The notes: generated by a model from the sequence alone, not told the origin. Counted from the first letter of the stretch, positions 6,100 to 42,893 are shown. The stretch is DNA of 64,000 nt from Patescibacteria group bacterium (GCA_038062835.1 JBBTWH010000001.1:42982-106981); one strand, 5' to 3'. Program-made: numbers and translations.

Positions 6100-6112
6100 C
6101 GTTATGAGACTT

Positions 6113-24456: not shown

Positions 24457-24459
24457 GCG

Positions 24460-24987: not shown

Positions 24988-25021
24988 GCTTCGCAGTCTA
25001 TGAACAATGCCTACATTATAA

Positions 25022-25054
25022 CACGAAAAGCCCGTCCATGATGGACGGGCTTTC
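25022..25054 (-). terminator. intrinsic terminator after the upstream pilin gene (aaagcccgtccat-c-atggacgggcttt + TCGTGT)
   Basis: A strong hairpin sits immediately downstream of the pilA paralog 2 stop. This is typical of major-pilin attenuation. Confidence 0.5.
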
Positions 25055-25071
25055 CCCGAGTCGACCGAGGC

Positions 25072-25554: not shown

Positions 25555-25679
25555 ACCGTTGGAACGAAAGTTTCTAAATGACTAATTAGCATGGGTTCAA
25601 TCGCCTCGTGTCGGCACACGGATATGATGGACTCTTTTCAGAGATTCTTCAAAGCTGATTATCCACAGTCTACCATCTT

Positions 25680-26072: not shown

Positions 26073-26077
26073 ATGGT

Positions 26078-27286: not shown

Positions 27287-27345
27287 GGGGAGGTCTGAGC
27301 GTTGAGGTTTGAGGTCTGACGTTAACCCTCAGACCTCAAACCTTA

Positions 27346-27744
27346 TTACTTCAGGTTGAGGATCTTCTTCACTTTCTTGACCGCTTCTCCGGGGACGAAG
27401 TGCGCCTTGATGAGGTAATCGACCGCGCCTTCCTTGAGGCAGCGCTCGACGTCTTCCTTCTGGCCGAGGTTCGTGAGCATCACGACGGGAATCTGCATCA
27501 GTTTCGGATCGAGCTTGAGGCGGTGCAGCATCTCGAAACCGTCCATTTTCGGCATGAGGATGTCGAGCAGGATGATATGGGGCGAGTGCTTCTCGGCCAG
27601 CTTCAAGCCCTGCTCGCCGTCGGCGCCGTGCAGGACGGTGAAACCTTCCAATTCAAATTTCGTGGCGTAGACGCTCGCCAGGAAGGAGTCGTCTTCGACC
27701 AGCAGTATCTTGACCTCGCTCAGGTTCGTCGGCATATGCATCAT
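27346..27744 (-). CDS. single-domain response regulator (CheY-like receiver, PilH-like)
   Basis: Has KILLVEDD, the phospho-acceptor Asp (ILLDILMP) and a conserved Lys. Confidence 0.8.
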   Translation of the reverse strand: MMHMPTNLSEVKILLVEDDSFLASVYATKFELEGFTVLHGADGEQGLKLAEKHSPHIILLDILMPKMDGFEMLHRLKLDPKLMQIPVVMLTNLGQKEDVERCLKEGAVDYLIKAHFVPGEAVKKVKKILNLK

Positions 27745-29495
27745 TCTCTCGCGAGACGGAGCACTTCGTCAACCGTCGTGGCGCCTTCGATGACCTTGAG
27801 CATCGCGTCCTGGCGCATGGTGATCCAGCCCTGCCTCCTCACTTCCTCCCTGACCTTATCGACAGGAAAGCCCTCGTTCATCATCTTCTGGATTTCCGCG
27901 TTGACGCTGATGAGCTCGGCGATGACCGTGCGGCCGGCGTAGCCCGTGTCGCTGCAGCGCAGGCAGCCCTTGCCCTTCTTGAACGGCAGCGGTCCTTCAA
28001 GCGTGAAGCCTTTCGGCAAGTATTCAGCGGGGACGTCCTTGAGGGCGTCGCGGACCATCAGGGCCGCGTTCTCCGGGACTTCCGCGTCCGTCTTGCAGTG
28101 CTCGCAGATCTTGCGGGCCAAGCGCTGGGCGATGATGAGATTGAGCGTCGCCGAAAGGAGGAACGGCTCGACGCCGAGATCGGTCAGGCGCGGGATGACG
28201 CCGATGGCGTCGTTGGTATGGATGGTGGTCAGGATCAGGTGGCCGGTAAGAGCCGCATGGACGCCGAGTTCGCCGGTCTCCTGGTCGCGGATCTCGCCGA
28301 CCATGATGACGTTCGGGTCCTGGCGCAGAAGGGCGCGCAAGCCGTTGGCGAAGGTGAACTTGATCTCCGGCTTGATCTGCGACTGGTTGATGCCGGGCAG
28401 GAAGTATTCGACGGGGTCCTCGAGCGTCGAGATGTTGACGCCCTCGTCGTTGATCATGCCGAGCATGGTGAGAAGCGTCGTCGACTTTCCCGAACCGGTC
28501 GGACCGGTGATCAGGATCATGCCGTGCGGTTTCTTGATCTCGGACTGCACGGCGTCGCGATACTTCTTGCGGAACCCAAGGCCTTCGAGCGTCGGCACGC
28601 CGGTGGAAGTGTCAAGCACGCGCATGACGACTTTCTCGTTGTCGACGACGGGGAGCGTCGAGATGCGGAAGTCGATGTTCTTGCCGTTGATGACCTGGGT
28701 GATGCGGCCGTCCTGAGGGACGCGCGTCTCGTCGAGCTTCAGGTTCGCCAGGACCTTCACGCGCGAAACGACCGCCGAGTGCAGGTAGGCCGGCAGGGTC
28801 AGCAGGGTGCGGAGCACGCCGTCGATACGGTAGCGCACGCGCGTCTCCTTGCCCTTCGGTTCGATGTGAATGTCGGAAGCCTTGGATTCCACCGCGTAGC
28901 GCATCACCACCGAGACGATGCGCGATACCGGCGCGCCCTTGATGACTTCCTCGATCTTGGATTCCTCGCCTTTCAGGTCCTCATCCTCCGCCTCTTCCTG
29001 CTCCTGCTCGGCCGTCACCAGGGCTTCGCCGACCTCCTTCTTGAACGCGCCGTATTGCTTGATGATGGCGATGGCCGCGTTCTGGGTGGTCACGGATGGC
29101 ACGGCCGTCATGTTGCGCTCGGCCATCAGGAACCCGACGGCTTCGGCGGCGGCGGAGTTGAGCGGGTCGACGTATGCGACCTTCAGCGTCGTCCCCTGCT
29201 GTTCGTAGGAGATCACCTGGTACGTTTCGGCGACCGTCTTCGGGATGATGTTAAGCGTGTCCTGATCGATCTGGCGGCCGGCCAGGTCCACGAACTCAAG
29301 ACCGAGGCCCTCGGCTTTCGCGCGCGCGAGGTCCTCTTCCTGCACCAGGCGCCGCTCCAATAGGACGCGTTCGAGCGCCTCGGCGTCCTGTCCGGCGAAC
29401 TCCGTAGCCAGCGCCACGAAGGTCTCCTTGCTGAGTTTTCCTTGACCCGCCAGCAGTTCGAGAAGGCCGGCAGCGGTCTTGAGGGCGACGGCCAT
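27741..29495 (-). CDS. pilB: type IV pilus assembly ATPase (GspE family)
   Basis: Has an N-terminal GSPII_E domain, Walker A (GPTGSGKST), Asp and His boxes, and a tetracysteine. Confidence 0.9.
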   Translation of the reverse strand: MAVALKTAAGLLELLAGQGKLSKETFVALATEFAGQDAEALERVLLERRLVQEEDLARAKAEGLGLEFVDLAGRQIDQDTLNIIPKTVAETYQVISYEQQGTTLKVAYVDPLNSAAAEAVGFLMAERNMTAVPSVTTQNAAIAIIKQYGAFKKEVGEALVTAEQEQEEAEDEDLKGEESKIEEVIKGAPVSRIVSVVMRYAVESKASDIHIEPKGKETRVRYRIDGVLRTLLTLPAYLHSAVVSRVKVLANLKLDETRVPQDGRITQVINGKNIDFRISTLPVVDNEKVVMRVLDTSTGVPTLEGLGFRKKYRDAVQSEIKKPHGMILITGPTGSGKSTTLLTMLGMINDEGVNISTLEDPVEYFLPGINQSQIKPEIKFTFANGLRALLRQDPNVIMVGEIRDQETGELGVHAALTGHLILTTIHTNDAIGVIPRLTDLGVEPFLLSATLNLIIAQRLARKICEHCKTDAEVPENAALMVRDALKDVPAEYLPKGFTLEGPLPFKKGKGCLRCSDTGYAGRTVIAELISVNAEIQKMMNEGFPVDKVREEVRRQGWITMRQDAMLKVIEGATTVDEVLRLARE

Positions 29496-29503
29496 GAGTA
29501 TCG

Positions 29504-29755
29504 TCAGTATGGTTCAAAAGGATTGTCGCGTCCCGTGCGCCCTGGGACGAGCGGGAGCTCGACCGGCAAGCGTAGCCGCGCATATTCCGGATGTTCCATG
29601 ACGGCCCTGGGGATGGAGGCGTCGACCGCCTTGGGCTGGTACGGAACCACGGTCAGTTTTTCCGGCGAAAAGACGAAAATGCCGAGCACGATGACGATGG
29701 CCGCCACGATGCCGCCGAGCAGGATCATCTGTTTCTGGCTTTTCTTCAGGTTCAT
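29504..29755 (-). CDS. small membrane-anchored pilus-operon protein
   Basis: 83 aa with a single N-terminal TM segment. It lies between pilO and pilB and overlaps the pilO stop. Confidence 0.45.
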   Translation of the reverse strand: MNLKKSQKQMILLGGIVAAIVIVLGIFVFSPEKLTVVPYQPKAVDASIPRAVMEHPEYARLRLPVELPLVPGRTGRDNPFEPY

Positions 29756-30339
29756 AGGCGTGCCGTCGGTTTGCCCGCAGTCCAGACGTAGGCGCGGATC
29801 GTCAGGCCGTAGCTCGCGCCCAGCGGATTGATGCTGGCGCTGCGGACGTCGAACAATCGGAGGTTGGATTCGAGGCCTTCGAGGAACAGCTTGAAGCGCT
29901 GATAGTTGCCGTGCTGGAGCGAGACGGCGATATTAAGCGCCCCGAGCCCTTGCACCCCCGGCAGACCCGTCATGTCGCCGGCGGCGAAGTTGATGGACGT
30001 AAGCTGAAGGTCGCTGGAGCGCGCGGCGGCCTCGAATATCGCCAAGAGACCCGGCGTGTCCTCCTCTGTCGGTATCATCGCGCGGATGCGTTCGACGTCC
30101 TCGGCGTCATACGAGTCGTACGCCGCCTTCAGCTCGTCCAGCTTCTTGAGATACGCCTCCTTAGCGAGACGCTCTTCCTGCAGCCGCATCGTGCGATCCG
30201 CTTGTCGGATACGCGCGAATTCCGGACGGAAGACGAACAGGAAACCGAGGCCAAGGAGGACGGCGACGAGCGCTGAGCCGGCCGGCAGGAGATTCTTGCC
30301 GATCCAGACGAGCGCCTTGCTTTGAGAAAATGAAGCCAT
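29752..30339 (-). CDS. pilO: PilO-like pilus assembly protein
   Basis: N-terminal TM segment, a coiled coil and a periplasmic domain. Sits between pilN and pilB. Confidence 0.6.
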   Translation of the reverse strand: MASFSQSKALVWIGKNLLPAGSALVAVLLGLGFLFVFRPEFARIRQADRTMRLQEERLAKEAYLKKLDELKAAYDSYDAEDVERIRAMIPTEEDTPGLLAIFEAAARSSDLQLTSINFAAGDMTGLPGVQGLGALNIAVSLQHGNYQRFKLFLEGLESNLRLFDVRSASINPLGASYGLTIRAYVWTAGKPTARL

Positions 30340-30340
30340 A

Positions 30341-31282
30341 TCAAGGCGCAGTTTCAGACGCGGCCGCTTCCGCCTTGAAATCGAAGATGGCGGGATCGAC
30401 CGTCAGCGTCATCGACGTGCGCGCGCCCTTCAGGAGGTCGTTCTCCGCGAAATCAGCGGAGGCCGTTCCGGCCGTGACCTTCCGCACGCGGGGGTCTTCG
30501 CGGAAGGCGATGATCTGCTTGGCCAGGGTCGTGTAATCGCTGGCGCGCACCTCGAAGCTTAGCGTGCCCGTATCGGCGCCGGCCAAGCTTCCGAACTGTA
30601 CGTTGGGAAGCGCGCGCTCTTCCATGAGCTTCAGGACCTGCGTCCAATGTTCGTGGTTCTCGAGCACGACGGCGGCGGTCTTGACGAGTCCCTGGAAATC
30701 GCGCACGGGCACGAGCGCGGATTCGCGGGCGGAAATCTGCGCGTCCATGTCGCGGACCGAGAGCTCGGCCTGCGCGTCGCGCTTCTCGACGACGGAGCGG
30801 TAGTACGCCAGGCCGCCATAGATCAGGCCGTCGAGCACGATGCCGAGCAGTCCGATCAGCGCGAAGGTCCTGAGCCGGCGGCGCAGGGCGACCTCGGACA
30901 TGCCGGCGCCGCCGCCCGAGGTGATGAGGCTGACGCGCAGCGTGTCGCTCCCCTTCTCTTCCTGAGGTTTAGGAGAAGGCGGCAGAGGCGATTTCGGAGG
31001 TGGCGTCGCGGCTGGCTTCGGCGGCGGGGGGAGCGGGGGCGTGGGCGGCTTCGGAGCCGCCGGTTTCGGCGGGAGCGCAGGGACCTTCTGGCTCAAGAGA
31101 GACGCTGCGGGGGCAGCGGCAAGCTTCGGCGGCGGAGCGGGGGCGGCGACTTTCGGTTCCGGGACGTCCGGGAGAGGCTCCGGTACGTGCAACGCCAACT
31201 CATCGGCGAGCGGCTTCGCGCCGCCCGCGGACTTTTCATCCTTGCGGGCGCCCGGCTCCGATAGGAAGTTGATGTCGCTCAT
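30341..31282 (-). CDS. pilN: PilN-like pilus assembly protein with Pro-rich N-terminal region
   Basis: Pro/Ala/Lys-rich low-complexity region, then a TM segment and a PilN-like domain. Immediately downstream of pilM. Confidence 0.6.
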   Translation of the reverse strand: MSDINFLSEPGARKDEKSAGGAKPLADELALHVPEPLPDVPEPKVAAPAPPPKLAAAPAASLLSQKVPALPPKPAAPKPPTPPLPPPPKPAATPPPKSPLPPSPKPQEEKGSDTLRVSLITSGGGAGMSEVALRRRLRTFALIGLLGIVLDGLIYGGLAYYRSVVEKRDAQAELSVRDMDAQISARESALVPVRDFQGLVKTAAVVLENHEHWTQVLKLMEERALPNVQFGSLAGADTGTLSFEVRASDYTTLAKQIIAFREDPRVRKVTAGTASADFAENDLLKGARTSMTLTVDPAIFDFKAEAAASETAP

Positions 31283-31291
31283 AGCGTCGCG

Positions 31292-32350
31292 CTAATCGAT
31301 GTCGCGCATGGCGAGCCCGACGGACACGCCGAACCGCGATCCGATCTGGTTGAGGACGGGACGCAGGGCCTCCGGATAGACCACGCGCGCCCAGGGATCT
31401 CCGACGTAGACGCGGAGGCTCATCGCTTTCGCGAGATAGTCGGCGAGCTGCGGCAGGAGCGCTCCGCCGCCGGTCAGGATGATCTTGTCGAGACGCTTGT
31501 CCTGGTTGGTCTTCTGGCCGAGGAACAGGTTCGTGGAATACGTGAGCTCCGTCAGGATCGGCGCGAAAACCTTCTCGAAGAGCTTGGGGAAACCGGCGTT
31601 ATACATCGACGCCATGGAAGCCGCGTCGATCTTCATGCTCTCGGCCTGGTCCACCGGCACGCCGAGGGCGGCGGACATCTCCTTGGTGACCGTCAGTCCT
31701 CCGAGCGAGACGGAGCGGCTGACGAACGGGATGCCGTGTTCGACGATCATGATGTTGGTGCGGAGCGTGCCGATGTCCAGGACCAGCGTCGGCGACTTGT
31801 CGCGCCCGATGAGAGAACGGATCATCGCCAGGGCCTCCGTCTCGAGGCTCGTCAGCTCGAGCCCGGCCGCGTTGAAGATGTCGGAATACTTCTTGATGAG
31901 GGACTTGGCGGCGCCCGTCAGCAGGATCTGGACGTATTTATCGTCAGGGCTCTGAGGGCCGACGGTGACCGGCTTCCAATCGACGGTCATCTCCTCGATC
32001 GGAAGCGGGATGAGCTTCTTGGCCTGCCACATGACCGCCTGCTCGAGATCCTCGCGCTTGGCGGTCTTCTGCACGCTGATGATGGAGCTGAATACCGAAG
32101 AAATCGGAAGGGCCGAGACGGCCTTGCGGCTGGTCGTCTTGGCCTTCTTGAGCATCTTTTTAAGGAGGTCGGCGGTGCCGGCAGCGTCGTCGATGTAGTT
32201 GCGCGTCATCTCGTCTACAGGACGGTCGACGAACGCGTAGGTCATGAGGCGCGCACGCCCCTTCTCGTTCAAGAGCTCGACGAGCTTCACGCCGCCGCCG
32301 CCGAAATCGATTCCGAGATAGCTGGGTCTTGATTGGCCGAACAATGCCAT
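31292..32350 (-). CDS. pilM: type IV pilus assembly protein PilM (actin-like ATPase fold)
   Basis: Has YLGIDFGGGGVKLVEL. GAGGAGG SD lies upstream. Confidence 0.85.
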   Translation of the reverse strand: MALFGQSRPSYLGIDFGGGGVKLVELLNEKGRARLMTYAFVDRPVDEMTRNYIDDAAGTADLLKKMLKKAKTTSRKAVSALPISSVFSSIISVQKTAKREDLEQAVMWQAKKLIPLPIEEMTVDWKPVTVGPQSPDDKYVQILLTGAAKSLIKKYSDIFNAAGLELTSLETEALAMIRSLIGRDKSPTLVLDIGTLRTNIMIVEHGIPFVSRSVSLGGLTVTKEMSAALGVPVDQAESMKIDAASMASMYNAGFPKLFEKVFAPILTELTYSTNLFLGQKTNQDKRLDKIILTGGGALLPQLADYLAKAMSLRVYVGDPWARVVYPEALRPVLNQIGSRFGVSVGLAMRDID

Positions 32351-32378
32351 ATCCTCCTCAGTGAATAGGTTCCTTCTC

Positions 32379-32393
32379 AGTATACCACACCGG
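32379..32393 (-). promoter_or_regulatory. extended -10 promoter TGgTATACT for the pilM operon
   Basis: On the minus strand it reads gtgTGGTATACTgagaagg, 35 nt upstream of ATG with an SD between. Confidence 0.4.
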
Positions 32394-32433
32394 CCTAAAC
32401 CCGCCTTACCGCGTCGTTCGCGAACGACGCGGC

Positions 32434-35400
32434 TTATCGCCCGGCGGTCGAACGGAAGCCTGGGAGCGAGCGGGTGGCGTCCGAAAGGCCCGGCGGGGGG
32501 TTCAGGATGACGCGGGCATCGAAGATGACGCGCTCGGAGCCTGAGGTGCGCGAGGCGTATTCCCGCTTGAACTCGAACTTCTTGGCGACGAACACGCCGG
32601 TGGCCTCGAACGGCGTCGTGCCGCCTCCGGTGTCGATCGTCTCCTCCGCGAAGAACGCGCCGACGGAACGATTGACCGTGGGGCCGACGTAGACATTGCC
32701 GCCGCCGGCGCCGTCTCTGAGCACGATCCAGCCGATCGAGGCCAGGTTCTTCAGGTCGCTCTCGTTGCGGTCCTGGTAGGTCAGGTCGCCGTCGATGACG
32801 AGGTCGCCTTTCACGATCACGAGGCCGTTGGCTCGCGCCGCTCCGGACGAGTTCTTGAACTCGATCGGCGCGCCGATCGTCAGCCCGGACGGGAAGTAAT
32901 AGATCTTGCCGTCGAGCCGGTCAGGCAACGAGCCTGGCTGCAGCAGCGCGCCGTACTTGCCGTTCAGGATGCCGTTCACGTCGATCGCGCCGAAGGAACC
33001 GACGTAGTTCTTCTCCGGCTTGGGAATCTCGTAGACGGTGGATCCTGACAATGCGCAGCCGAGCTCGCTCGTGAAGTTGGTGATGAGGCCGCCCGACTGC
33101 AGACAGTAGGTGGCGTTGTAGATGGGCGGCGCCTCCCCCGCCTGGATCTCGCCGCCGGAATAGACCTGTCCGGAAACGGTCTCGACGAACGGTTTCACGA
33201 GCGCCTTGCATTCGTTCGAGAGGCAGTCCGCGTTCGAGAAGCAGCAGCTGCCCTCGTCCGGAGCGCCTGCGCCGCAGGCGCCCCAGTCGAGACTGCAGAC
33301 GCCGATGGCGGAAGTGACCGGCGGCGAGCAGTCCGCATCGACGGCGCAGTTCACGGTGCACATCGGCTGGTCGACGATCACGCACAGGTCATCGCCCGCG
33401 CAGTCCGTATCCGCGGAACAGACGCCGCCGGGGGTGAGGTCGTCAGGAGATTCGCCGCAGTACTTGTATTTGCAGCGTCCGACGAGCCCGGCTTCGCAGG
33501 AATCTCCGATGCCGTTGGCGTTCTCGTCGCGCTGATTGGGATTATGGAAGTTGATGCAGTTGTCGCAGGCGCGCGGGAACGGCGCCCCGAAATACGTCGG
33601 CGTCGGCGGCGAGGCGTAGCCCGTCGGGGTGAAGCGTCCCTCGGGCGTCCCATCGACATCGACGTCGGCGTCCGCGCACGCGCCGGTGCCGACGTCGGCG
33701 TTCTCGCACTTCAGGAACGACTGCGCGTTGGAACGCACGATGTCGCCGCTCGAGTCGGTCGCCTCGACGAAAATCCAATAGCGGCCAGCCGCCAGGGCTG
33801 CCGGCACCGCGTAGACGCCCTGGCATGTCAGGGTCGTGCCGAGCGCGGTCGGGATCATCGTGGCCGTGCCTGCGATGCCGCCGACCCAATCCTGGTCGTA
33901 GACGTAGACGCGGCAGGTCGCGACGACCGGGAAGGTGCTGAGCGTGTCGGTGCGGAACTTGGTCGTCAGGCTGACGTCCTCGGTCCCGCGGTAGGTGAGG
34001 ACGGTCGAGCCGTTGACGTCCGTGCCGAGCACGAGGTTCTCGTCGACCGACGGGACGACGTTGACGTCGATCGTCTGCGTCGAAGTCGCGCTCACGTTGG
34101 CGGCGCCGTCGAGCGCCGCGGCGGCGATGTCGTACGCGGCGTTGTCGTTGGCGAACGGTCCGACCGTCGCGACGCAGTTGCCGTCCGGCGAGGTATAGCC
34201 CGCGCCTTCGAGATCGAACTCGCAACGGCAGATGCCGGACGGGTCGGCGTTCGGCGTCGCCTGGAGGCGGACGGTGGCGCCGACGGGCACGCTGACCTTG
34301 CCCGCCACGATGCCCTCGACCTCGACCGCCGGAGCCGGCAGGGTCGGGGCAGAATGTTCAAAGACCTGCACCGACGGCGTCGCCTCGCCGAACTCGACGG
34401 AGCCGGAGCGGTTCGCGACGGTCGAGATCTTGTAGTCCTCAGGGCCGAGCGGTACGGCCGAAGAGCTTGCGCAGCTCAGCGTCACGTCGAATCCGGCGAC
34501 CGTCTCTCCGTATTTCTCCGTGATGACGCCCACGCCGGAAGAAGGGCTGGCGTACTGCAGTTGCGAAGCGCCCGCGCCGGAAAGCGAACAGTTGCCGGCG
34601 CCGGCGTCGAACGGGAATGCGTTGGCGGCCACGGCACCGTCGCCGATGACGATGGTGAGCGAGGTGTAGCTGCCCGAGCCGGTGAAGCGGATGCGGTAGG
34701 CGGAACTCGCGTAGATACGGTCGTCATGGGCATAAAGCGTGTTGCCGCCGGAGACGATCGGCGCGAGCGCGGTCGTATGCGGCACGTCGGGACAGCTCGC
34801 CGCCAGGGTCCAGCCGCCGGCGCCCGGACGCTGCTTGCACTGGACGCCGTCCTGACAAGCCGCGTCGAAGCAATCGGCGCCGGCGTCCGAATCGTTGTTC
34901 GCTCCGTCGTGACAGGTGACCGCGCCGGACTCCGCGCCGCAGAAATAGGGGCTGGACGCGACGGAGCCTACGGTCGGCCCGTGCCGCTGGGCCGGAGCCG
35001 TGCAGCCGACGTCGGCGCAGTCTATCTGGCCGTCGCCGTCGTTATCGATGCCGTCGCCGCAATAGTCCGCGTCGTTCTCGGAGGCGGAGCAGATGGCGAC
35101 GTCGGTGGCGAGCGTCGCGTACTGGGATCCGCAGGCGGACGTCGTGCAGCCCGAGCGTCCGATCTTGCGGTTCGCGCGGCATTCTGCGTCCGCGCAGTCG
35201 ATCACGGTATCGAGATCGTCGTCCACGGCGTCGCTGCATGAAAGGAACGTGTAGTCCTCCTGGCCGGGACTTGGTCCGCACTGGCCGAAAACGTTCCGGC
35301 AGTCTGGATCGAACTCGTCGATCAGCGCGTTGCCGTCGTTGTCGATGCCGTCGTCGCAGAGATTGAAATAGAAGGCGGGCAGGACCGTGCCGTCGCCGAG

Positions 35401-36633
35401 AGGGCTGGGCGGCAGATACGCCTCGAAGCTCGCGCAGGAACTGGCGCCGAAGGAAGCGCCGAGACAGTCGATGTCGGCGCAGTCGACGTCCTCGTCGAGG
35501 TCGTCGTCGAGTCCGTCGAAGCACTGCGCCGGCGCATCGACGAACGTGCCTGAACCGATATCCCAGCGCATGCGCTCGTCGACCGTGCAATTCCCCTGGC
35601 CTTCGCAATCGTAATCGCGGCAGTCGATGCCTGTGCCTGCGCTCGTATCGACGGCGGAGCCGTAGTCCTGATCGCGGTCGTTGTCGATGTCGTCGACGCA
35701 GGATATCTCGACGGCGGCGCAATCCTGGAAGCCGCTCTTCCAGCAGCCGGTGCCTGGATCGTCGTCGGCGCAGTCGAGCTCGCCGTTGCCGTCGTTGTCG
35801 AACGCGTCGGCGCAGTTCGCGTGCGCGGCGCCGGCGTTCTCGGAACCGCAGAACTTCGTGCCTGCGAGGTTGCCTGGGCGGCCGTTGCAGAGCGGGTCGG
35901 CGCAGTCGAGCTCGCCGTTGCCGTCGTTGTCGAGGCCGTCGTTGCAGGTCTGCTCCGGAGACTCGCAGACCTGCGTCGGGCTGATGCTTTCACCCGTGCA
36001 ATCCGAATCGGCGCAGTCCAGGCGATAGTCCAGGTCGTTGTCGACGCCGTCGTAGCACTGCCGGTGCGACGGCCCGAATAGCGCGGAGAGCGAGGCGCCC
36101 TCGTCGCGGTTCGAGGGAGAAGACGCGTCGAGGTACACGCTGAACGGACCGACGATCTGCGTCGCTCCGTATTGCGAGAGCTCAAGCGTGATGGAAATCG
36201 TGCCCGGTACCGGCGAGACGTAGCGGAGGTCCTGCGTGAAATCATACGTCACGCCGGCCGCGCTGGAACCAGACGATCGTTCGATGATGGTCTTGGGGAT
36301 GTTGACGGCCTGGTCGGGCGGCAGGCTGGCGACAGGGCTCGGATTCTTCAGCGAAGCGTTGCCGGAAAAGGCCTTGTCGACGGTGATCTTGAAGCGCACA
36401 GGGTCGGCGTCCGCGGAGTACGGACCGCTCGTGAAACGGACCTTGAGGCTGGCGTCGCCCTCCTCATGGTTCTGCGTCCAGGCGTATGCGACGACCTGAC
36501 CGCCGACCGAGACGTTCCCCGCGCATACGTTTCCCGCGCATGAAGGATTCATGACCGCCTGGGCCGGCAGGAACTCGCGCCAGAACAGTCCGGCGGCGAC
36601 GGCGAGCGCGATGATCCAAAAACGGGTCTTCAT
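32434..36633 (-). CDS. giant (1399 aa) secreted Cys/Asp-rich repeat protein, putative Ca2+-binding adhesin
   Basis: Signal peptide, then about 8 copies of C.DG.DND.(N)G..DC.D motifs resembling thrombospondin-type-3/dockerin Ca-binding loops. The N-terminal region is beta-rich and the C-terminal region is rich in Gly, Asn and Tyr. Confidence 0.7.
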   Translation of the reverse strand: MKTRFWIIALAVAAGLFWREFLPAQAVMNPSCAGNVCAGNVSVGGQVVAYAWTQNHEEGDASLKVRFTSGPYSADADPVRFKITVDKAFSGNASLKNPSPVASLPPDQAVNIPKTIIERSSGSSAAGVTYDFTQDLRYVSPVPGTISITLELSQYGATQIVGPFSVYLDASSPSNRDEGASLSALFGPSHRQCYDGVDNDLDYRLDCADSDCTGESISPTQVCESPEQTCNDGLDNDGNGELDCADPLCNGRPGNLAGTKFCGSENAGAAHANCADAFDNDGNGELDCADDDPGTGCWKSGFQDCAAVEISCVDDIDNDRDQDYGSAVDTSAGTGIDCRDYDCEGQGNCTVDERMRWDIGSGTFVDAPAQCFDGLDDDLDEDVDCADIDCLGASFGASSCASFEAYLPPSPLGDGTVLPAFYFNLCDDGIDNDGNALIDEFDPDCRNVFGQCGPSPGQEDYTFLSCSDAVDDDLDTVIDCADAECRANRKIGRSGCTTSACGSQYATLATDVAICSASENDADYCGDGIDNDGDGQIDCADVGCTAPAQRHGPTVGSVASSPYFCGAESGAVTCHDGANNDSDAGADCFDAACQDGVQCKQRPGAGGWTLAASCPDVPHTTALAPIVSGGNTLYAHDDRIYASSAYRIRFTGSGSYTSLTIVIGDGAVAANAFPFDAGAGNCSLSGAGASQLQYASPSSGVGVITEKYGETVAGFDVTLSCASSSAVPLGPEDYKISTVANRSGSVEFGEATPSVQVFEHSAPTLPAPAVEVEGIVAGKVSVPVGATVRLQATPNADPSGICRCEFDLEGAGYTSPDGNCVATVGPFANDNAAYDIAAAALDGAANVSATSTQTIDVNVVPSVDENLVLGTDVNGSTVLTYRGTEDVSLTTKFRTDTLSTFPVVATCRVYVYDQDWVGGIAGTATMIPTALGTTLTCQGVYAVPAALAAGRYWIFVEATDSSGDIVRSNAQSFLKCENADVGTGACADADVDVDGTPEGRFTPTGYASPPTPTYFGAPFPRACDNCINFHNPNQRDENANGIGDSCEAGLVGRCKYKYCGESPDDLTPGGVCSADTDCAGDDLCVIVDQPMCTVNCAVDADCSPPVTSAIGVCSLDWGACGAGAPDEGSCCFSNADCLSNECKALVKPFVETVSGQVYSGGEIQAGEAPPIYNATYCLQSGGLITNFTSELGCALSGSTVYEIPKPEKNYVGSFGAIDVNGILNGKYGALLQPGSLPDRLDGKIYYFPSGLTIGAPIEFKNSSGAARANGLVIVKGDLVIDGDLTYQDRNESDLKNLASIGWIVLRDGAGGGNVYVGPTVNRSVGAFFAEETIDTGGGTTPFEATGVFVAKKFEFKREYASRTSGSERVIFDARVILNPPPGLSDATRSLPGFRSTAGR

Positions 36634-38051
36634 GGGCGAGGAGGCTGAGGCGAGGACGCGGGCGGGTGCGTGATGCAGAGATACGTGATGCCGCGGCAGT
36701 TACGGTCCGGTACGGTCGCAGGAGTGCCCCCGGCGCAGTCGCGCTGGAGGTTGGCGTCGTCGTCGACGCCGTCGTAGCAGCGGATCTCTACGGGAATGCC
36801 GCGCGCCCTCAGCAGGGTGAAAGCGAGGTCGCCCTCGGTGTCGCACTGCGCGACGTTCGCGTCCGGGTCGGTGTTCTCGAAATAAGCCCTCGACGGATCG
36901 GTGTCGGCGTTGCCGTCCAGGCAGTATTTCGCGCGCACGGAGTCGACTGAATTCGCGCCCGCGGCGCCGGCGAACGTCCACGTCGAAGGATGGACCGCGA
37001 CGTTGCGCGAGACGGCCTTCACCTCCGGCGGCGTCGCCTGGATCTCGCAGCCGAACGGCGGATCAGGCAACTGCGAGCTGAACGACCAGAGAACCGGGTT
37101 TCCCGAGCCGTCCACGACGGCATCGCCGCCAGTCATGGCGTATGAGATCGAATACGTCGGGACCAGCGCCTGACGCGTCGTGACGGTATGCAAAAGTTCG
37201 CGATGCGTCCCGTTTGACATCTGGAAGACGCAGCGGATGATCGCGCCTGCCGGCGCGGAGAATCCGTTGAAGACGACGGGAATGTCGGTCAGCGCCGACG
37301 TGCTGGGCGCCGGCGAGTAGACGCCTTCGATAGGATCGATGTCGTCGGTCCAGCCGGTGTCGACGAACGTGCTTCGAGCGCCCCAAGCCCCGGGCGCCGC
37401 GCAGGAGGAGAACGGCGTACCGCAGCCGAACTTGATCCAGCCTGAACCGCTGGCGTCGCCGTTGCCGTTCCAGGCGTAGCCGTTGAACTCGCCGGCGGGC
37501 TGAGTGGCGTCCTCGTCGTACTCGACGGCGTAGTCGGAGCTCGGGCAGGAATGCGGCGATGCGGTGTTCGTGCCGACATCGGTGCAGTTGAGGGAAATCC
37601 AGCCGCGGTAGTTCGCGCCGTCCGTCATGCTGATGACGTAAGCCCAGCCGTGGATCTCCTGGTCGGTGGTGTCGTAATACGCGCACGGGACGAATCCGGG
37701 GCAATAATGGTCCGCCGCGCTGACCGGACTCGAAGGCGTACCGCCAGGAGGCGCCCCGGCCGCGCCGTCGCATGTCGCGCCGAAACAGATCCAGCCCGCA
37801 GTGGTCGACCAGGCCCAGCCCGAAAGGTTGTTGTCGTCATCGAAATCAAGGCCGTAATCCCCTCCTGCGCCGACGCATCCGGTGCCGGGATTGTTGCAGT
37901 CCATCGAGATCCAGCCGAGCGAACCGGACCACGCCCAGCCGCTGACGTTATGGACGGCGGCCTCCGCGGAGCGCGGGATGAGCAGTAATACGAAGACGCC
38001 CACGCCGAAAACGAGGGAGGTCAGTCTGGCGGAAAGCCCGGACGTTCCCAT
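36630..38051 (-). CDS. secreted 'GWAWS...GWIxxxC' repeat protein
   Basis: Signal peptide plus TM. Four repeats follow: NVSGWAWSGSLGWISMDC, NLSGWAWSTTAGWICFGATC, GWAYVISMTDGANYRGWISLNC and NGYAWNGNG..GWIKFGC. The C-terminus has a CYDGVDDDANLQRDC motif like the giant protein. There is a 4-nt overlap with the downstream giant gene. Confidence 0.6.
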   Translation of the reverse strand: MGTSGLSARLTSLVFGVGVFVLLLIPRSAEAAVHNVSGWAWSGSLGWISMDCNNPGTGCVGAGGDYGLDFDDDNNLSGWAWSTTAGWICFGATCDGAAGAPPGGTPSSPVSAADHYCPGFVPCAYYDTTDQEIHGWAYVISMTDGANYRGWISLNCTDVGTNTASPHSCPSSDYAVEYDEDATQPAGEFNGYAWNGNGDASGSGWIKFGCGTPFSSCAAPGAWGARSTFVDTGWTDDIDPIEGVYSPAPSTSALTDIPVVFNGFSAPAGAIIRCVFQMSNGTHRELLHTVTTRQALVPTYSISYAMTGGDAVVDGSGNPVLWSFSSQLPDPPFGCEIQATPPEVKAVSRNVAVHPSTWTFAGAAGANSVDSVRAKYCLDGNADTDPSRAYFENTDPDANVAQCDTEGDLAFTLLRARGIPVEIRCYDGVDDDANLQRDCAGGTPATVPDRNCRGITYLCITHPPASSPQPPRP

Positions 38052-38071
38052 ACGGCCTTATTCTACAGGAA

Positions 38072-38100
38072 TTGACGCTCCCTCGCACGGCCCTCACAAT
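38072..38100 (+). promoter_or_regulatory. sigma70-like promoter for pepF (TTGACG-17-CACAAT)
   Basis: aaTTGACGctccctcgcacggccctCACAATgggg, about 35 nt upstream of ATG 38135. Confidence 0.4.
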
Positions 38101-38134
38101 GGGGACATCTGCCTTAATCGAGTAGCGCCGTATC

Positions 38135-39949
38135 ATGCCTTCCAAGACCGAAAAAACCGGGGCCGAAAACGTCCGCTGGGACCTCTCGTTCCTCTATAAA
38201 GGGATCGATGACCCGAGGCTCACGACCGACCTCGACGAGGTCGTGAAGCACTGCCGTTCGTTCAACAAGCGCTTCCGCGGCAAGCTCGGGACCGACCTGG
38301 GCGACGCTCTGCGCGCCTACGCCGACATCTCGGCCCAGAGCATGAAGATCGGCGTCTACCTCTTCCTCTCGAAGAGCGTCGACCTCTCGAACGCGAAGTT
38401 GAACGCCAAGCGCGCCGAGGTCGACCGCGTCATGAACGACGCCTCGGGGGAGCACCTGACGTTCTTCACGCTCGAGCTCGTCGACATTCCGGAGGCCGAC
38501 ATCGCGCGCCAGGCCAAGTCCGACGCCTTCGTCGCGAAGCACCGCCCCTGGATCGATCACGCGCGCCTCTTCAAGCCGCATCTGCTCAGCGAGCAGGTCG
38601 AGGGCGCGCTCACCAAGCGCGAGAGCTTCGGTCCCGGCGCCTGGAGCGACTTCTTCGACGAGGTCGAGGCCGACCTGAGCTTCAAGCTCGGGAACGACAA
38701 GATGACGCTGACGGAGATCCTGCACGTCGTGAACGACGACGCGAGCGCCGTGCGTCGCGCCAGGACCCTCAAGGTCCTGAACGACGGCCTGGGCGGACCC
38801 TTCGCCAAGTACGCCGCGCAGACGCTCTGGCAGACGGCCGGCGGCAACGACCTGGAAAACAAGGAGCGGGGCTACAAGCACCCGATGCAGGGCCGCAACA
38901 TGGGTAACCGCATCCCGGACAAGGTCGTCGAGGCCTTGCACGAAGCGGTCACCGATGTCGCCGGACCCTTGGCCCGCCGCTGGTACCGCTTGAAAGCCAA
39001 GCTTTTGGGCCTCAAACGCCTCCGGTGGAGCGATCGCAATGCGCATCTGCCTTTCGAGGACAAGAGCCTCGTGCCGTTCGACGTCGCCCAGCGCGAGATC
39101 GTCCTTCCGGCCTACCGGAGCTTCAGCCCGACGCTCGCCAAGCTCATCGAAGAGATGGTGAAGGAGCGGCGCATCGACGCGCCGGCCGGGCCGAACCGCG
39201 AGAGCGGCGCCTACTGCTACTCGATCGTGCTCCCCGACGGCAAACCGATCTCGTTCAACTTCCTGAACTACAAAGGATCGAAGCGCGACGTGATGACGAT
39301 CGCGCACGAGGAAGGCCACGCCGTCCATGGCCTCCTGGCCGGAGAGTCGCAGGGCGTCCTCCAGCAGCACGCGCCGATGGCCTACGCCGAGACGGCCAGC
39401 GTCTTCGGCGAGATGACGACCTTCGAGTTCCTCCGCGCCCGCATGCCGAAGGACGACCCGAAGGCCTCGCTGGCGCTGGTCGCCGGCAAGATCGACGATA
39501 TGCTGAACACCGTCGTGCGGCAGATAAGCTTCTCGAACTTCGAGCGCGCGCTCCATGGCGCGGGCAAGAAGCTGGCGGCCTCGGACCTCGACGCGCTCTG
39601 GATGGAGGCCACGCGCAAGATGTACGGCAAGGACGGCGATGTCTTCGACTACGCCGACATGTCGCACCTCTGGGCGTACATCTCGCACTTCCACCGGCCG
39701 TTCTACGTCTACAGCTACGCATTCGGCGAACTGCTGACGCAGAGCCTCTACGCCAAGCGGGAGGCCTACGGCAAGAAGTTCGAGCCGTTGTACCTCGACC
39801 TCCTGCGCGCCGGCTCCACCAAGGACGCCGTCGGCCTGCTCAAGCCCTTCGGGCTCGATCCGACCGACCCGACGTTCTTCGCGGATGGCGTCACGGGCAG
39901 CCTCGGCAAGCTCGTGGCCGAGGCGGAAAAGCTGGCGAAGAAAATCTAG
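38135..39949 (+). CDS. pepF: oligoendopeptidase F (M3B family)
   Basis: Has the HEEGHAVHG zinc-binding motif plus a downstream Glu. Confidence 0.9.
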   Translation: MPSKTEKTGAENVRWDLSFLYKGIDDPRLTTDLDEVVKHCRSFNKRFRGKLGTDLGDALRAYADISAQSMKIGVYLFLSKSVDLSNAKLNAKRAEVDRVMNDASGEHLTFFTLELVDIPEADIARQAKSDAFVAKHRPWIDHARLFKPHLLSEQVEGALTKRESFGPGAWSDFFDEVEADLSFKLGNDKMTLTEILHVVNDDASAVRRARTLKVLNDGLGGPFAKYAAQTLWQTAGGNDLENKERGYKHPMQGRNMGNRIPDKVVEALHEAVTDVAGPLARRWYRLKAKLLGLKRLRWSDRNAHLPFEDKSLVPFDVAQREIVLPAYRSFSPTLAKLIEEMVKERRIDAPAGPNRESGAYCYSIVLPDGKPISFNFLNYKGSKRDVMTIAHEEGHAVHGLLAGESQGVLQQHAPMAYAETASVFGEMTTFEFLRARMPKDDPKASLALVAGKIDDMLNTVVRQISFSNFERALHGAGKKLAASDLDALWMEATRKMYGKDGDVFDYADMSHLWAYISHFHRPFYVYSYAFGELLTQSLYAKREAYGKKFEPLYLDLLRAGSTKDAVGLLKPFGLDPTDPTFFADGVTGSLGKLVAEAEKLAKKI

Positions 39950-40421: not shown

Positions 40422-40841
40422 CTATTTCTTAAGATGCCGGTCGAGCGCCTTGTTGACCTGCGCGTCGGCTTCCGTGTTGTACTCGCGACGGACGTGCTTG
40501 AAGGTGACTTTCTTGAAGGCGATGCGCTCGTTGTGGATCAGCATGTAGATCGAGGCGAGCCCGGCGTCCTTCACCTTGTACTCCCCCGTCAGCTGTTTCA
40601 CCGCGAGTTCGGAGTCCATGCGCATCTCGAGCGTCTCCGCGCCGAGTTCGCGCGCCTTGCGGATGGCGGCGAGGATGCCCTTGTACTCGGCTTGGTTGTT
40701 GGTGGTGATGCCGACGTATTCGCCGTGCCCCGCGATCGATTCGCCGTCGGGCGTCTTGATGACGTAGCCGTACGCCGAAGGACCGGGGTTCCCGCGGGAA
40801 CCGCCGTCGCTATACGAAATCAGGTGCTTGTGGACGGCCAT
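40422..40841 (-). CDS. rnhA: ribonuclease HI
   Basis: Has SDGGSRGNPGPSAYG, TNNQAEY and a D/E catalytic tetrad with C-terminal D..N..AD. TATACT lies 15 nt upstream. Confidence 0.8.
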   Translation of the reverse strand: MAVHKHLISYSDGGSRGNPGPSAYGYVIKTPDGESIAGHGEYVGITTNNQAEYKGILAAIRKARELGAETLEMRMDSELAVKQLTGEYKVKDAGLASIYMLIHNERIAFKKVTFKHVRREYNTEADAQVNKALDRHLKK

Positions 40842-40915
40842 AAATACAGGGGGAAGTATAACATAAGGCCTACTCCTCCGTGGCCTTACCCCCCCCAGCC
40901 TACCCTTTCAAATCT

Positions 40916-40943
40916 CCAATAACGCACGGCCGTGCGTTATTGG
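40916..40943. promoter_or_regulatory. 28-bp perfect loop-less palindrome CCAATAACGCACGG|CCGTGCGTTATTGG, operator-like
   Basis: Perfect 14-bp inverted repeat between the recJ terminator and the rnhA promoter. Confidence 0.35.
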
Positions 40944-40977
40944 AGAAAAGAAAGCCCCTCTTTGGAAGAGAGGGGCT
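40942..40977 (-). terminator. intrinsic terminator after recJ
   Basis: agcccctct-cttccaa-agaggggct followed by TTCTTTTCTCC on the minus strand. Confidence 0.5.
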
Positions 40978-40992
40978 GGAGTGAGTGGGGAT

Positions 40993-42789
40993 TTAGGACT
41001 GGATCTCCGAAGTCCGAATATCGACGACCCTCCCTTGCGGCTCGACGCGGCCTTGCCATTCGTTGAGATCGAGCTCGACGACGGCGTCGATTGGACCGCC
41101 GATCGGGAGATCGACCAGCCTCGGACCGAACCCGAAGCCGATGAGCTTCAGGCGTCCGCCTTTGTCGTCGACGACGGTCAGCTGGAGGTGCTTACCCTCT
41201 GCGCCGACTTGCCGCGACGAGGCGACGCGTCCTCCGCGCAGGAGGAAGCGCGGACGAGGGTTGCCCTCGCCGTGCGGTTCGAGCGCCTTCAGTTCCCTGA
41301 TGAGCCCGACGGAGACCTCGTGCACCGCCGCCTCTTCCTCGATCTCGATCGAGGGCGTGAGGTCGGCGGAACCGAGCGTGGCGTCGGCGTGAGCGACGAA
41401 GGCCCTCTTGAAGGCCTCGAAGTTCTCGTCGCCGACGATGGTCATCCCGCAGGCGGCCGGGTGGCCGCCGAACTTCTGGATATGTTCGGAACACGCGCGC
41501 AGGGCACCCGTGACGTCGAAGCCTGGGATGCTACGGCCGGAACCGACGTATCTCGCAGCGGAAGGAACTCCCCCTGCCCCCTCTTGCTCCAAGAGGGGGG
41601 AAAGTCGAGTCTGACGTCCTAGGGCGATGACGGGGCGGTAGTGCTCGTCGACGAGCTTGGAGGCGACCAGGCCGCACAGCGCGGCCGGCCAGCCCTGTCC
41701 CGCCACGACGATAGCGCTCTGCGTCGCTTGCGCGGCGCCCATCACGAAGGCCTCTTCCATGATGTTTGCGGTCGCTTTCTGGCGGTCCGTGTTGTGGCCG
41801 TGCAGGACTTCGGCGCGGACTTCCGCGTCCTCCGACGTTTCCGCCGTCAGCAGCCCGAAGGCGGCATCGGCGTGCTCCATGCGTCCGGCCGCGTTGATGC
41901 GGGGCGCGATGCGGAAGCCGATGGACATGGCATCGAGAACCTCGTCGTCGCGGCGCACGCCGTCGATGAGGGTCTTGAGGCCGAGGCGTTTCGTCTTGTT
42001 GAGGACCACGAGCCCGTAGTGCACGAGCGCGCGGTTCTCGCCGACGAGCTTGCCCATGTCGGCGACGGTGGAGATGGAGACCATATCGAGCAGCCACTTC
42101 TCGTGGCCCTCGGGGAGATGCGCTTCTTTCCAGAGCGCCTGGCAGAGCTTGAAGGCCACGCCGCCGCCCGTGAGGTGGCGGAACGGATACGTCTCGCCTT
42201 CGCGCAGCGGATGCAGGATGGCGTAGGCGGGCGGAAGCTCGGGCGGCAGGGTGTGGTGATCGGTGACGATGACGTCGATGCCGAGCGAGACCGCCAGCGT
42301 GATTTCCTTGCCGCTCGAGATGCCGCAGTCGCAGGTGATGATGACCTTGGTTCCCTCCGCGGCCATCTTCTCGATCGACGGGGAGTTCATGCCGTAGCCG
42401 TCCTTCTCGCGATGCGGCAGGTACACCGACACGTCGGCGCCGATGGCCTTGAGCGTCGAGTGGAGCACGACCGAACCGGAGACGCCGTCGGCGTCATAGT
42501 CGCCGTGGACGACGATCTTCTCGCCGGTCTTCGCTGCCTTCATCAGACGGTCGACGGCCTTGCGCATATCAAGGAACAGGAACGGATCGTGGACATCACG
42601 ATCCCAGGAAGGATGCAAGAACCCGTCGGCCTCGGCGGCCGTGCGGATGCCTCTTCTCCACAGGAGCGCGGCGATGAGCCGCGAATGTCCCGCCAGCGCC
42701 GTGAAGGCTTCCTGCGGGACCGCTTCGGCCATCTTCCAGCGTTTTTGACCCATGGGCCTATTAGTACCCGTAGAAGGCCGTGGAGACAA
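40993..42789 (-). CDS. recJ: single-stranded-DNA-specific exonuclease RecJ
   Basis: Has the DHH motifs (HGDYDADGVSG, DHH) and the DHHA1 domain. Confidence 0.9.
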   Translation of the reverse strand: MSPRPSTGTNRPMGQKRWKMAEAVPQEAFTALAGHSRLIAALLWRRGIRTAAEADGFLHPSWDRDVHDPFLFLDMRKAVDRLMKAAKTGEKIVVHGDYDADGVSGSVVLHSTLKAIGADVSVYLPHREKDGYGMNSPSIEKMAAEGTKVIITCDCGISSGKEITLAVSLGIDVIVTDHHTLPPELPPAYAILHPLREGETYPFRHLTGGGVAFKLCQALWKEAHLPEGHEKWLLDMVSISTVADMGKLVGENRALVHYGLVVLNKTKRLGLKTLIDGVRRDDEVLDAMSIGFRIAPRINAAGRMEHADAAFGLLTAETSEDAEVRAEVLHGHNTDRQKATANIMEEAFVMGAAQATQSAIVVAGQGWPAALCGLVASKLVDEHYRPVIALGRQTRLSPLLEQEGAGGVPSAARYVGSGRSIPGFDVTGALRACSEHIQKFGGHPAACGMTIVGDENFEAFKRAFVAHADATLGSADLTPSIEIEEEAAVHEVSVGLIRELKALEPHGEGNPRPRFLLRGGRVASSRQVGAEGKHLQLTVVDDKGGRLKLIGFGFGPRLVDLPIGGPIDAVVELDLNEWQGRVEPQGRVVDIRTSEIQS

Positions 42790-42889
42790 GCATGCTGGTC
42801 AGGACGAGCAGGCAGAGCAACGCCCAGCCCTTCTTGACCCAGTCGCGCCGACGCCACTTTTTCTTCTTGATGATCTTGTCGTCATTCAT
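42761..42889 (-). CDS. possible small membrane protein (42 aa, MNDDKIIKKKKWRRRDWVKKGWALLCLLVLTSMLVSTAFYGY)
   Basis: ATG-initiated mini-ORF filling the gap between lepA and recJ. It has a basic N-terminus and a C-terminal TM segment, and is not in the track because it is under 60 aa. Confidence 0.3.
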   Translation of the reverse strand: MNDDKIIKKKKWRRRDWVKKGWALLCLLVLTSMLVSTAFYGY

Positions 42890-42893
42890 ATGA

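Follow-up and report, generated by a model that had tools for sequence, protein, structure and literature searches.

The 64,000-nucleotide stretch of DNA analysed here (GCA_038062835.1 JBBTWH010000001.1:42982-106981; hereafter, the window) comes from a metagenome-assembled genome (MAG) of a member of the Patescibacteria, or candidate phyla radiation (CPR). Directly upstream of the type IV pilus (T4P) gene pilM, it carries two adjacent genes, here called A and B, whose products are identical to the NCBI entries AAB554_00440 and AAB554_00445, respectively. An earlier reading, made from the sequence alone, described A (1399 aa) as a giant calcium-repeat adhesin and B (473 aa) as a repeat protein co-transcribed with it, and the positions and lengths of the ORFs (open reading frames) hold exactly. 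The calcium repeats are real as well, but the region that holds them is a lineage-specific insert and not the defining part of the system. Sequence comparison across species indicates instead that the conserved core consists of the N-terminal repeat domain of B and the C-terminal β-solenoid of A, which in most cases form one protein of ~460 to 720 aa.

Relatives were collected from one genome per species (GTDB representatives) with a six-sequence alignment of the C-terminal domain (CTD) of A as the query, and the modules were then located by tblastn with the window proteins. Among the best 80 of 104 relatives, both modules are present in 74 loci: 55 encode them in one ORF of 460 to 720 aa, and 19 have a split pair, consisting of a B-like gene and a gene for an A-like protein of 1300 to 1560 aa. 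At least 400 nt of sequence is available beyond the gene in 77 loci; pilM starts within this distance in 71 of them, begins 1 to 5 kb away in four others, and was not found in the remaining two. As the scan starts from the CTD, this count shows that the CTD comes with an adjacent pilM rather than what fraction of patescibacterial pilus operons have the gene, and related species in it are not independent observations. The check proposed in the sequence-only reading, for co-occurrence with T4P loci in other genomes, is therefore positive, and the case that would have refuted that reading, generic surface-layer (S-layer) or wall proteins unlinked to T4P, does not apply. As far as can be judged from the titles, the 80 loci all belong to Patescibacteria (Paceibacter, Uhrbacteria, Kuenenbacteria, Falkowbacteria, and Parcubacteria). 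Many of the records are, however, titled “uncultured Gammaproteobacteria bacterium” (L008, L011, L012, L014, L015, L018, and others), with 70 to 90% identity to the window genes; the gene content contradicts these generic titles, which seem to be mislabels introduced when MAGs were submitted in bulk.

The single-gene form is exemplified by P0050 (663 aa) and P0061 (636 aa), in which the repeat domain of B is fused to the equivalent of A residues ~1140-1399 (BLASTP E values of 7e-43 and 2e-30, respectively) and whose genes occupy the slot between RecJ/RNase H and PilM. The elements that are invariant in the CTD are NAT(Y/F)C, NLAS.GW, YDGR/FDAR, and NPPPG; P0050 and P0061 share all four with A, the third one as YDGR. 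P0050 has an intermediate organization, in which four acidic repeats and a Cys-rich stretch separate the repeat domain from the CTD; it suggests that the linker expanded and that fission of the gene then gave the split form, probably in this order. Homologs of A and B adjoin each other in other MAGs, and even remote full-length homologs of A, with 31 to 35% identity, retain the two-gene form and the same synteny: LepA-RecJ-RNaseH-B-A-PilM-N-O-small ORF-PilB-RR-PilC-pilins-PilD (RR, response regulator).

In the window, B and A overlap by 4 nt, as had been claimed: in the junction sequence, CCATGAAG, the TGA of B and the ATG of A share the tetranucleotide ATGA, implying that the two genes are probably translationally coupled. 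This overlap is kept in 14 of the 18 examinable split loci, the genes being 0 to 11 nt apart in the remainder, and every A-like protein of the split loci has a signal-peptide-like N terminus of its own. The window pair displays the features of the family, namely, the GWAWS domain, the NAT(Y/F)C…NPPPG…LPx[FW] solenoid, and the location immediately 5' of pilM, distributed over two genes. That fusions exist and that both the coupling and the adjacency are conserved strongly supports the view that A and B act together as one functional unit. In the same way, the fixed position before pilM at ~35% protein identity, while other neighbours change, strongly supports the assignment of the conserved protein to the T4P system. 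Median identities are 35 to 36% for the repeat domain and the CTD versus 26 to 29% for PilN and PilO, and the conservation of the core modules lies between that of PilM/PilC and that of PilN/PilO. The features of the window are listed in Table 1.

Table 1. Genes, protein regions, and sequence signals around the A/B pair, in the order of the minus strand (positions are those of the window)
Feature	Position	Strand	Remarks
LepA	42894-44744	-	
RecJ	40993-42789	-	
RNase H	40422-40841	-	
M3 oligopeptidase F gene	38135-39949	+	Between RNase H and B
Divergent intergenic region	38052-38134		Between the M3 oligopeptidase gene (+) and B (-)
Gene B (AAB554_00445, NCBI “hypothetical protein”)	36630-38051	-	473 aa, secreted
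B, signal peptide	37959-38051	-	Sec-type, residues 1-31 (…PRSAEA/AVHN), by eye; predicted helix 4-24
B, repeat domain	37377-37958	-	Residues 32-225, four G[WY]A[WY]…GW[IL]…(D)Y(G/A)V repeats
B, Ig/CBM-like β sandwich	36987-37304	-	Residues ~250-355, predicted, pLDDT 85-95
B, acidic disulfide unit	36732-36779	-	Residues 425-440, single unit (CYDGVDDDANLQRDCA)
B/A stop/start overlap	36630-36633	-	ATGA, 4 nt
Gene A (AAB554_00440, NCBI “hypothetical protein”)	32434-36633	-	1399 aa, secreted, pI 4.06, 68 Cys
A, signal peptide	36556-36633	-	Sec-type, residues 1-26 (…LPAQA/VMNP), by eye
A, N-terminal domain	36064-36555	-	Residues 27-190, fold unassigned, restricted to split-form homologs
A, acidic repeats	34855-36057	-	Residues 193-593, nine double-disulfide repeats (NF033662), region pI 4.05
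A, middle region	33694-34833	-	Residues 601-980, presumed β-rich or Ig-like
A, thrombospondin type-3-like unit	33493-33567	-	Residues 1023-1047, one unit (CDNCINFHNPNQRDENANGIGDSCE)
A, Cys-rich linker	33199-33492	-	Residues 1048-1145
A, CTD	32437-33198	-	Residues 1146-1399, conserved pilus-linked module, predicted triangular β-solenoid
A, LPGF	32455-32466	-	Residues 1390-1393, conserved C-terminal LPx[FW] tail
GC-rich hairpin	32408-32433	-	11 bp, without a T tract, directly 3' of the A stop codon
Extended -10-like element	32379-32387	-	TGgTATACT, 5' of pilM, by eye; not reported by a simple promoter scan
Downstream pilus cluster	23686-32350	-	
pilM	31292-32350	-	
pilN-like gene	30341-31282	-	PilN-sized protein
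pilO	29752-30339	-	
Small ORF	29504-29755	-	83 aa, between pilO and pilB
pilB	27741-29495	-	
CheY-like response regulator	27346-27744	-	132 aa, between pilB and pilC
pilC	26078-27286	-	
Two pilins	25072-25554, 24460-24987	-	
Prepilin peptidase	23686-24456	-	Followed by further pilin-like genes and LigA

Protein B consists of a signal peptide, a Trp-rich β domain of four repeats, an Ig-like sandwich, and a C-terminal region that is poorly predicted and includes a single acidic disulfide unit. All four repeats of the sequence-only reading are present: the G[WY]A[WY] motif is found at residues 38, 78, 135, and 191, and shuffled sequences give at most one. The repeat domain contains 11 Trp and 10 Cys residues and just 2 Lys plus Arg residues in 194 aa; its isoelectric point (pI) is 4.05. 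An AlphaFold2 model of B (mean pLDDT of 75.6 and pTM of 0.73, from a 45-sequence alignment), which, like that of the CTD of A, has moderate overall confidence, shows about three strands per repeat, corresponding to GWAWS, GWIxF, and (D)Y(G/A)V. Residues 32-225 are predicted to form a compact antiparallel β meander or barrel, and the last ~110 residues are poorly predicted. A Foldseek search of B against the PDB returned no match at an E value of ≤1e-3, and the profile of the B family found nothing among the PDB sequences. The sequence-only reading could not place the GWAWS motif in any known family, and neither Pfam nor NCBIfam provides a model for it (Pfam scans covered the whole proteins at an E value of ≤0.01 and eight segments at an E value of ≤1; in NCBIfam, the acidic repeat was the sole match). 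The acidic Cys/Asp motif near the end of B, also pointed out earlier, is recovered by a hidden Markov model (HMM) with an i-E value of 1.4e-5; with 15.5 bits against NF033662, below the 41-bit cutoff, B alone is not a member of that family.

Homologs of B include 43 sequences with 48 to 100% identity, which are orthologs, and remoter relatives with ~30% identity. The GWAWS domain is found in at least 1218 proteins at an E value of ≤1e-3 (phmmer, 1.84 billion representatives). Among the best 150 of these, 45 also bear the CTD of A, and others bear PKD, Ig_Rha78A_N, LamG, or fn3 modules. The domain is a large unnamed extracellular module, a general surface module rather than a pilus marker. In P0210, P0269, and P0279, it is combined with a prepilin-type N terminus (MKGFTLIE…, MRGFTLVE…, with one N_methyl match); these proteins are predicted modular type IV pilins bearing the module of B, so the module can be pilin-borne and is presumably displayed on the pilus. 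The idea that all GWAWS proteins are pilus linked was rejected: the PKD-type paralogs P0062 and P0059 adjoin RuvA, not pilus genes, and no prepilin motif is found among the readable neighbours of P0062 (L087). A tail motif, [LFIV]P.[WF], often in the form LPxW(K/R)E(V/I)xP, is found in GWAWS proteins (P0190-P0332): 51 of the best 150 have it no further than 22 residues from the C terminus, solenoid-type and PKD/LamG-type members alike. It is followed by no hydrophobic segment and is therefore not a sortase-type signal; it may represent a common docking or sorting tag.

Protein A contains an array of acidic double-disulfide repeats. The sequence-only reading had counted about eight Cys/Asp units; the repeats are confirmed, but a small HMM finds nine of them, at residues 193, 230, 274, 312 (with a 12-aa insertion), 371, 426, 466, 525, and 574. 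The strict motif occurs six times in A and not once in 2000 shuffled sequences. NF033662 matches A with 142.3 bits (E value of 2.5e-42; curated cutoff, 41 bits) in seven stretches, which makes A a member of this family. A search of all PDB sequences with a profile of 24 full-length A homologs shows similarity to the C-rich domain of teneurin-4 (7PLP, 7plp_A; E value of 1.7e-4), in an alignment of the A stretch EQTCNDGLDNDGNGELDCADPLC that takes in just the first three of the six Cys residues of that domain, and to teneurin-2 (E value of 5e-3). In each unit of A, 7 to 8 of the 9 teneurin calcium-ligand positions are occupied by Asp, Glu, or Asn, and 2 to 3 of the 3 aligned Cys residues are retained. 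At 1.5 Å, the teneurin C-rich domain displays three fully coordinated Ca2+ ions, whose ligands are eight acidic residues and one Asn; two of the sites follow the coordination pattern of thrombospondin type-3 repeats, and the third follows that of LDL-receptor A modules (PMC9058538).

The same A-family profile matches the type-3 repeats of COMP (3FBY) with an E value of 5.9e-5 for the whole sequence and of 0.25 to 70 for single stretches; this alignment runs via a separate unit, A ~1018-1050, against six type-3 repeats. Together with the conservation of the ligands, the matches to 7PLP and COMP support the notion of Ca loops framed by disulfides, already put forward in the sequence-only reading. 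The prediction that the A repeats bind Ca2+ is well founded, because they are homologous to a solved Ca-binding domain. TSP_3 (PF02412) has no match in A, either in the whole protein (E value of ≤0.01) or in its segments (E value of ≤1), and the resemblance to type-3 repeats is confined to one unit; dockerin (PF00404) has no match in A or B. Among remote relatives, dockerin matches are found in P0126 and in a neighbouring gene of L006. In the latter locus, the gene for the fused repeat-domain/solenoid protein is preceded by one for a further protein, of 1128 aa (3478-6864), that contains repeats of the dockerin type, and a second T2SSE (PilT-like) ATPase is encoded in the operon as well. Surface proteins with Ca repeats seem to be gained readily in the region before pilM. 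The Ig-like β regions ascribed to A could not be confirmed, the sole hint being a Big_13 match with an E value of 0.049; the Ig-like sandwich is predicted in B instead.

The CTD of A, with a pI of ~5.2, is predicted to adopt an ice-binding-protein type of β-solenoid fold, and its fold matches include ComZ, ice-binding proteins, and tapirins. The CTD profile finds nothing below an E value of 5 among all PDB sequences, and DUF3494 (PF11999) gives no Pfam match to the CTD at an E value of ≤1.

Both A and B have Sec-type N termini with AxA cleavage sites (AEA/A in B and AQA/V in A), assigned by eye without a predictor and consistent with the secretion claimed for both. No prepilin motif, N_methyl match, or lipobox is found in A or B, nor is there a pilin domain, and the mature proteins start directly with other domains. 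Pfam and NCBIfam searches of the two proteins detect no SLH, LPXTG, LysM, or other wall-anchor family. The C terminus of A has no hydrophobic or charged tail, and neither A nor B contains an enzyme domain.

Downstream of the pair, pilM starts 83 nt past the stop codon of A, as the location given by the sequence-only reading requires, and its product is identified by a PF11104 match with an E value of 1e-43. No secretin gene is found in the pilus cluster, and no second T2SSE ATPase (PilT) is encoded within the 64-kb window. Upstream of B, a minus-strand ORF of 526 aa (38114-39694) was considered and rejected as an Arg/Val-rich antisense artefact of the M3 oligopeptidase gene, which makes B the first gene of the minus-strand cluster. 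In L001-L006, which are distant relatives, the slot that follows RNase H and precedes B lacks the M3 oligopeptidase gene. The G+C content of the window is 55 to 68%, with a mean of about 63%, and there are many long spurious opposite-strand ORFs as a consequence; such a G+C content is unusually high for Patescibacteria.

The stand-alone CheY-like regulator overlaps the end of pilB by 4 nt and is found in the same position in L001-L004 and L006. A small ORF (83 to 108 aa), to which no Pfam family corresponds, is always located between pilO and pilB (L001, 16489-16785; L002, 17252-17521) and may encode another uncharacterised component of the machine. In many species (L001-L086), the pilus cluster is flanked by DNA metabolism genes, with LepA-RecJ-RNase H upstream; in the window, NAD-dependent DNA ligase is encoded downstream of the cluster, so that DNA metabolism genes lie at 18940-21057 and 40422-44744. 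This setting could reflect a role of the pilus in DNA uptake or merely a conserved ancestral gene order.

The minus-strand cluster presumably starts at the divergent intergenic region, where a TAGAAT hexamer resembling a -10 element ~10 nt upstream of the ATG of B marks a putative promoter. The 83-nt spacer between A and pilM (32351-32433) contains the hairpin, then the -10-like element, and then a strong ribosome-binding site, GAGGAGG. The hairpin, for which the surrounding 90-nt region yields a z score of -2.0, could be an attenuator or an mRNA-stabilising element. The arrangement of the spacer suggests attenuation or a separate internal promoter between the A/B pair and pilM; the co-transcription put forward in the sequence-only reading is, as regards pilM, putative.

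What A and B do is best approached from the conserved form. The reading that we favour, tentatively and as somewhat short of probable, is that A and B make up a non-pilin, pilus-borne cap or adhesin complex with a calcium-stiffened stalk. A and B would be the two halves of a protein that in most species is a single secreted chain with a signal peptide, a GWAWS β-repeat domain, a variable linker, and a C-terminal β-solenoid. In the lineage of the window, the linker would have been enlarged with an Ig-like sandwich, nine units of the teneurin C-rich type, a thrombospondin type-3-like unit, and Cys knots. Fission of the enlarged gene would then have produced a translationally coupled pair, in which either product starts with a signal peptide of its own. 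The A and B polypeptides would be exported by the Sec pathway and would reassemble outside the membrane as one complex. The β-solenoid tail might dock on the pilus, most likely on the minor-pilin priming/tip complex, much as PilY1/PilC dock by way of their C-terminal domains and as ComZ exposes a comparable solenoid at the tip, and the acidic array, stiffened by Ca2+ and disulfides, could act as a stalk that holds the Trp-rich domain outward as a ligand-binding head. A glycan or cell-surface ligand appears likelier than DNA, given the pI of 4.05 of the head and its 2 basic residues in 194. The complex would then serve as a non-pilin cap or adhesin of the pilus by which episymbiotic cells make contact. 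Here, we infer the association with the pilus or its tip, the reassembly of A and B, and the nature of the ligand.

Several observations weigh against a cap or adhesin. The gene heads the pilMNO-pilB-pilC machinery block and does not lie beside the minor pilins, the usual place of genes for tip adhesins (PilY1 and ComZ, for example). The core modules evolve more slowly than PilN and PilO, a pattern that fits machine parts better than host-specific adhesins. Neither A nor B contains a pilin domain, a membrane anchor, or a wall anchor, and the GWAWS domain is common in contexts other than T4P. As far as the structure models go, the likeness of the CTD to ComZ and the ice-binding proteins is one of fold only and not homology, and the fold match to ComZ is no better than that to the ice-binding proteins.

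Some of these observations would be accommodated by the main rival reading, a static envelope part of a secretin-less pilus machine: an extracytoplasmic collar, conduit, or alignment part that would lead the filament through the wall or S-layer, standing in for PilP, PilQ, or TsaP in function instead of riding on the filament. We regard such a role as rather unlikely. It would agree with the single copy per operon, with the position as the first gene of the pilM-N-O-x-pilB-pilC block in the 71 loci, with the pilus cluster having no secretin gene, and with the degree of conservation between PilM/PilC and PilN/PilO. However, A and B lack a membrane anchor, a lipobox, and a peptidoglycan-binding domain, no oligomerisation (ring) domain can be recognised in them, and the threefold variation in length, caused by inserts of the adhesin type (Ig, Ca repeats, and, in relatives, LamG), is unusual for a fixed component. 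The nearest pilus-related structural neighbour of the solenoid is, moreover, a filament-borne protein. A related view, which we consider unlikely, makes the repeat-domain/solenoid protein an obligatory, lineage-specific extracellular part of the pilus, either a priming cap that replaces PilY1-type proteins or an element by which the secretin-less machine crosses the wall or S-layer, made of a Trp-rich β-repeat fold for which no counterpart has been solved; the LPx[WF] tail, common to solenoid-type and PKD-type GWAWS proteins, would then be a CPR-specific tag for docking to the pilus, to the envelope, or of the proteins to each other.

The signals in the A-pilM spacer bear on a different question, whether A and B might be a co-regulated exoprotein or cargo, merely encoded beside the pilus genes or exported across the wall via the pilus or an apparatus like the type II secretion system, and physically no part of the pilus. 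The GC hairpin after A and the -10-like element before pilM suggest a partly separate transcription unit; GWAWS paralogs that have PKD or LamG modules are surface proteins in their own right, encoded at a distance from T4P genes; and architectures with a β-solenoid and Ca repeats are typical of autonomous adhesins. Nevertheless, the adjacency to pilM is kept down to ~32% identity while the neighbours change (the M3 peptidase, and extra genes in L059, L062, and L075), the CTD occurs in no other slot among the 80 loci, and simple co-regulation seldom maintains such a strict gene order, so this explanation is improbable.

A DNA receptor of a competence pilus, in which a ComZ-like solenoid and the β domain would bind extracellular DNA at the tip for nucleotide scavenging in auxotrophic cells, is doubtful and distinctly unlikely. 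The operon does lie among DNA-processing genes in many species, with RecJ and RNase H upstream and LigA downstream, and the slow evolution of the core modules would fit an invariant ligand. The charge is, however, unfavourable, the repeat domain, the CTD, and the whole of A being acidic (pI of 4.05, ~5.2, and 4.06, respectively). The ComZ match is one at the level of the fold, equalled by that to ice-binding proteins, and the lysines by which ComZ contacts DNA are located between a solenoid domain and a pilin domain, the latter of which A and B lack. Finally, a generic S-layer or cell wall protein that is next to the pilus genes by accident, suggested by the large, acidic, Cys-rich, and secreted nature of A and B and their want of enzyme domains, is very improbable in view of the linkage to pilM in 71 of 77 loci from divergent species, the fusion/fission pattern bound to the slot before pilM, and the failure to detect SLH, LPXTG, or any other wall-anchor family.

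With the cap or adhesin complex as the favoured reading, the pre-pilM protein becomes a concrete candidate for a pilus cap, an adhesin, or an outer machine part. Few surface machines are conserved in CPR/Patescibacteria; T4P are one of them and are thought to serve host attachment, motility, and DNA scavenging, but, outside Saccharibacteria, little is known of what the pili bear and of how they pass through the envelope. The gene occupies its fixed slot in at least 80 species of the Paceibacteria and ABY1 types, is annotated everywhere as “hypothetical protein,” and belongs to no Pfam family; a literature search found no paper on this gene, on the GWAWS domain, or on a patescibacterial solenoid of this kind. 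The giant Ca-repeat adhesin of the window thus appears as a split and expanded version of a compact pre-pilM protein, with a repeat that can be tied to a crystallised Ca-binding domain.

PilY1/PilC of Pseudomonas, Myxococcus, and Neisseria is likewise a large non-pilin protein that is exported by the Sec pathway and whose gene lies in a T4P locus, with a conserved C-terminal domain, a variable adhesive region, calcium binding in its design, and a proposed role in capping or priming the pilus and mediating contact. In contrast to its seven-bladed propeller, the CTD of A is a predicted β-solenoid; A and B are encoded before pilM rather than with the minor pilins, conservation is found at both termini and variation in the middle, and in the lineage of the window the protein is split. 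The sequence-only reading was right in calling the pair unrelated to PilY1/PilC in sequence, as there is no match to the Pfam family Neisseria_PilC and no β-propeller.

Tapirins of Caldicellulosiruptor are non-pilin β-helix adhesins whose genes adjoin a T4P locus and whose host cell lacks an outer membrane. Their structures (6N2B, 6N2C, and 4WA0) are among the fold matches of the CTD, and the pilus-locus setting provides a second analogy. The ice-binding DUF3494 solenoids (6BG8, 3WP9, 7BWX, and 5UYT) resemble the CTD at the level of the fold; the Pfam model fails, the genomic context is different, and nothing hints at ice binding. ComZ of Thermus thermophilus (6QVI) is a competence pilin whose GspK-like pilin fold is interrupted by a large triangular β-solenoid; its binding partners are the minor pilin PilA2 and DNA, and it has been argued to sit at the pilus tip (PMC6561018). 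The CTD is predicted to share its β-solenoid of the ice-binding-protein fold, whereas A and B have no pilin domain or N-terminal hydrophobic helix and no sequence similarity to ComZ, and they do not mirror its acidic/basic make-up or its DNA-binding site.

The teneurin C-rich domain (7PLP) shares with the A units the motif E-x-x-C-x-D-x-x-D-N-D-G-D-G-x-x-D-C-x-D-x-D-C, which is present in nine tandem units in the bacterial pilus-locus protein and in a single copy in teneurins. Adhesive modules are displayed by T4P on the modular pilins of Streptococcus sanguinis (PilB/PilC) and Saccharibacteria (PilX1/PilX2; PMC11623550), in contrast to which A and B, having no pilin moiety, would join the filament non-covalently. 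In the study of the Saccharibacteria pilus, adhesion is attributed to such pilin-borne modules, and the pre-pilM gene is not among the loci described (PMC11623550). PilY1/PilC, ComZ, tapirins, and modular pilins are the functionally closest systems, each set apart from A and B by a defining feature, be it the propeller, the pilin domain, or sequence homology.

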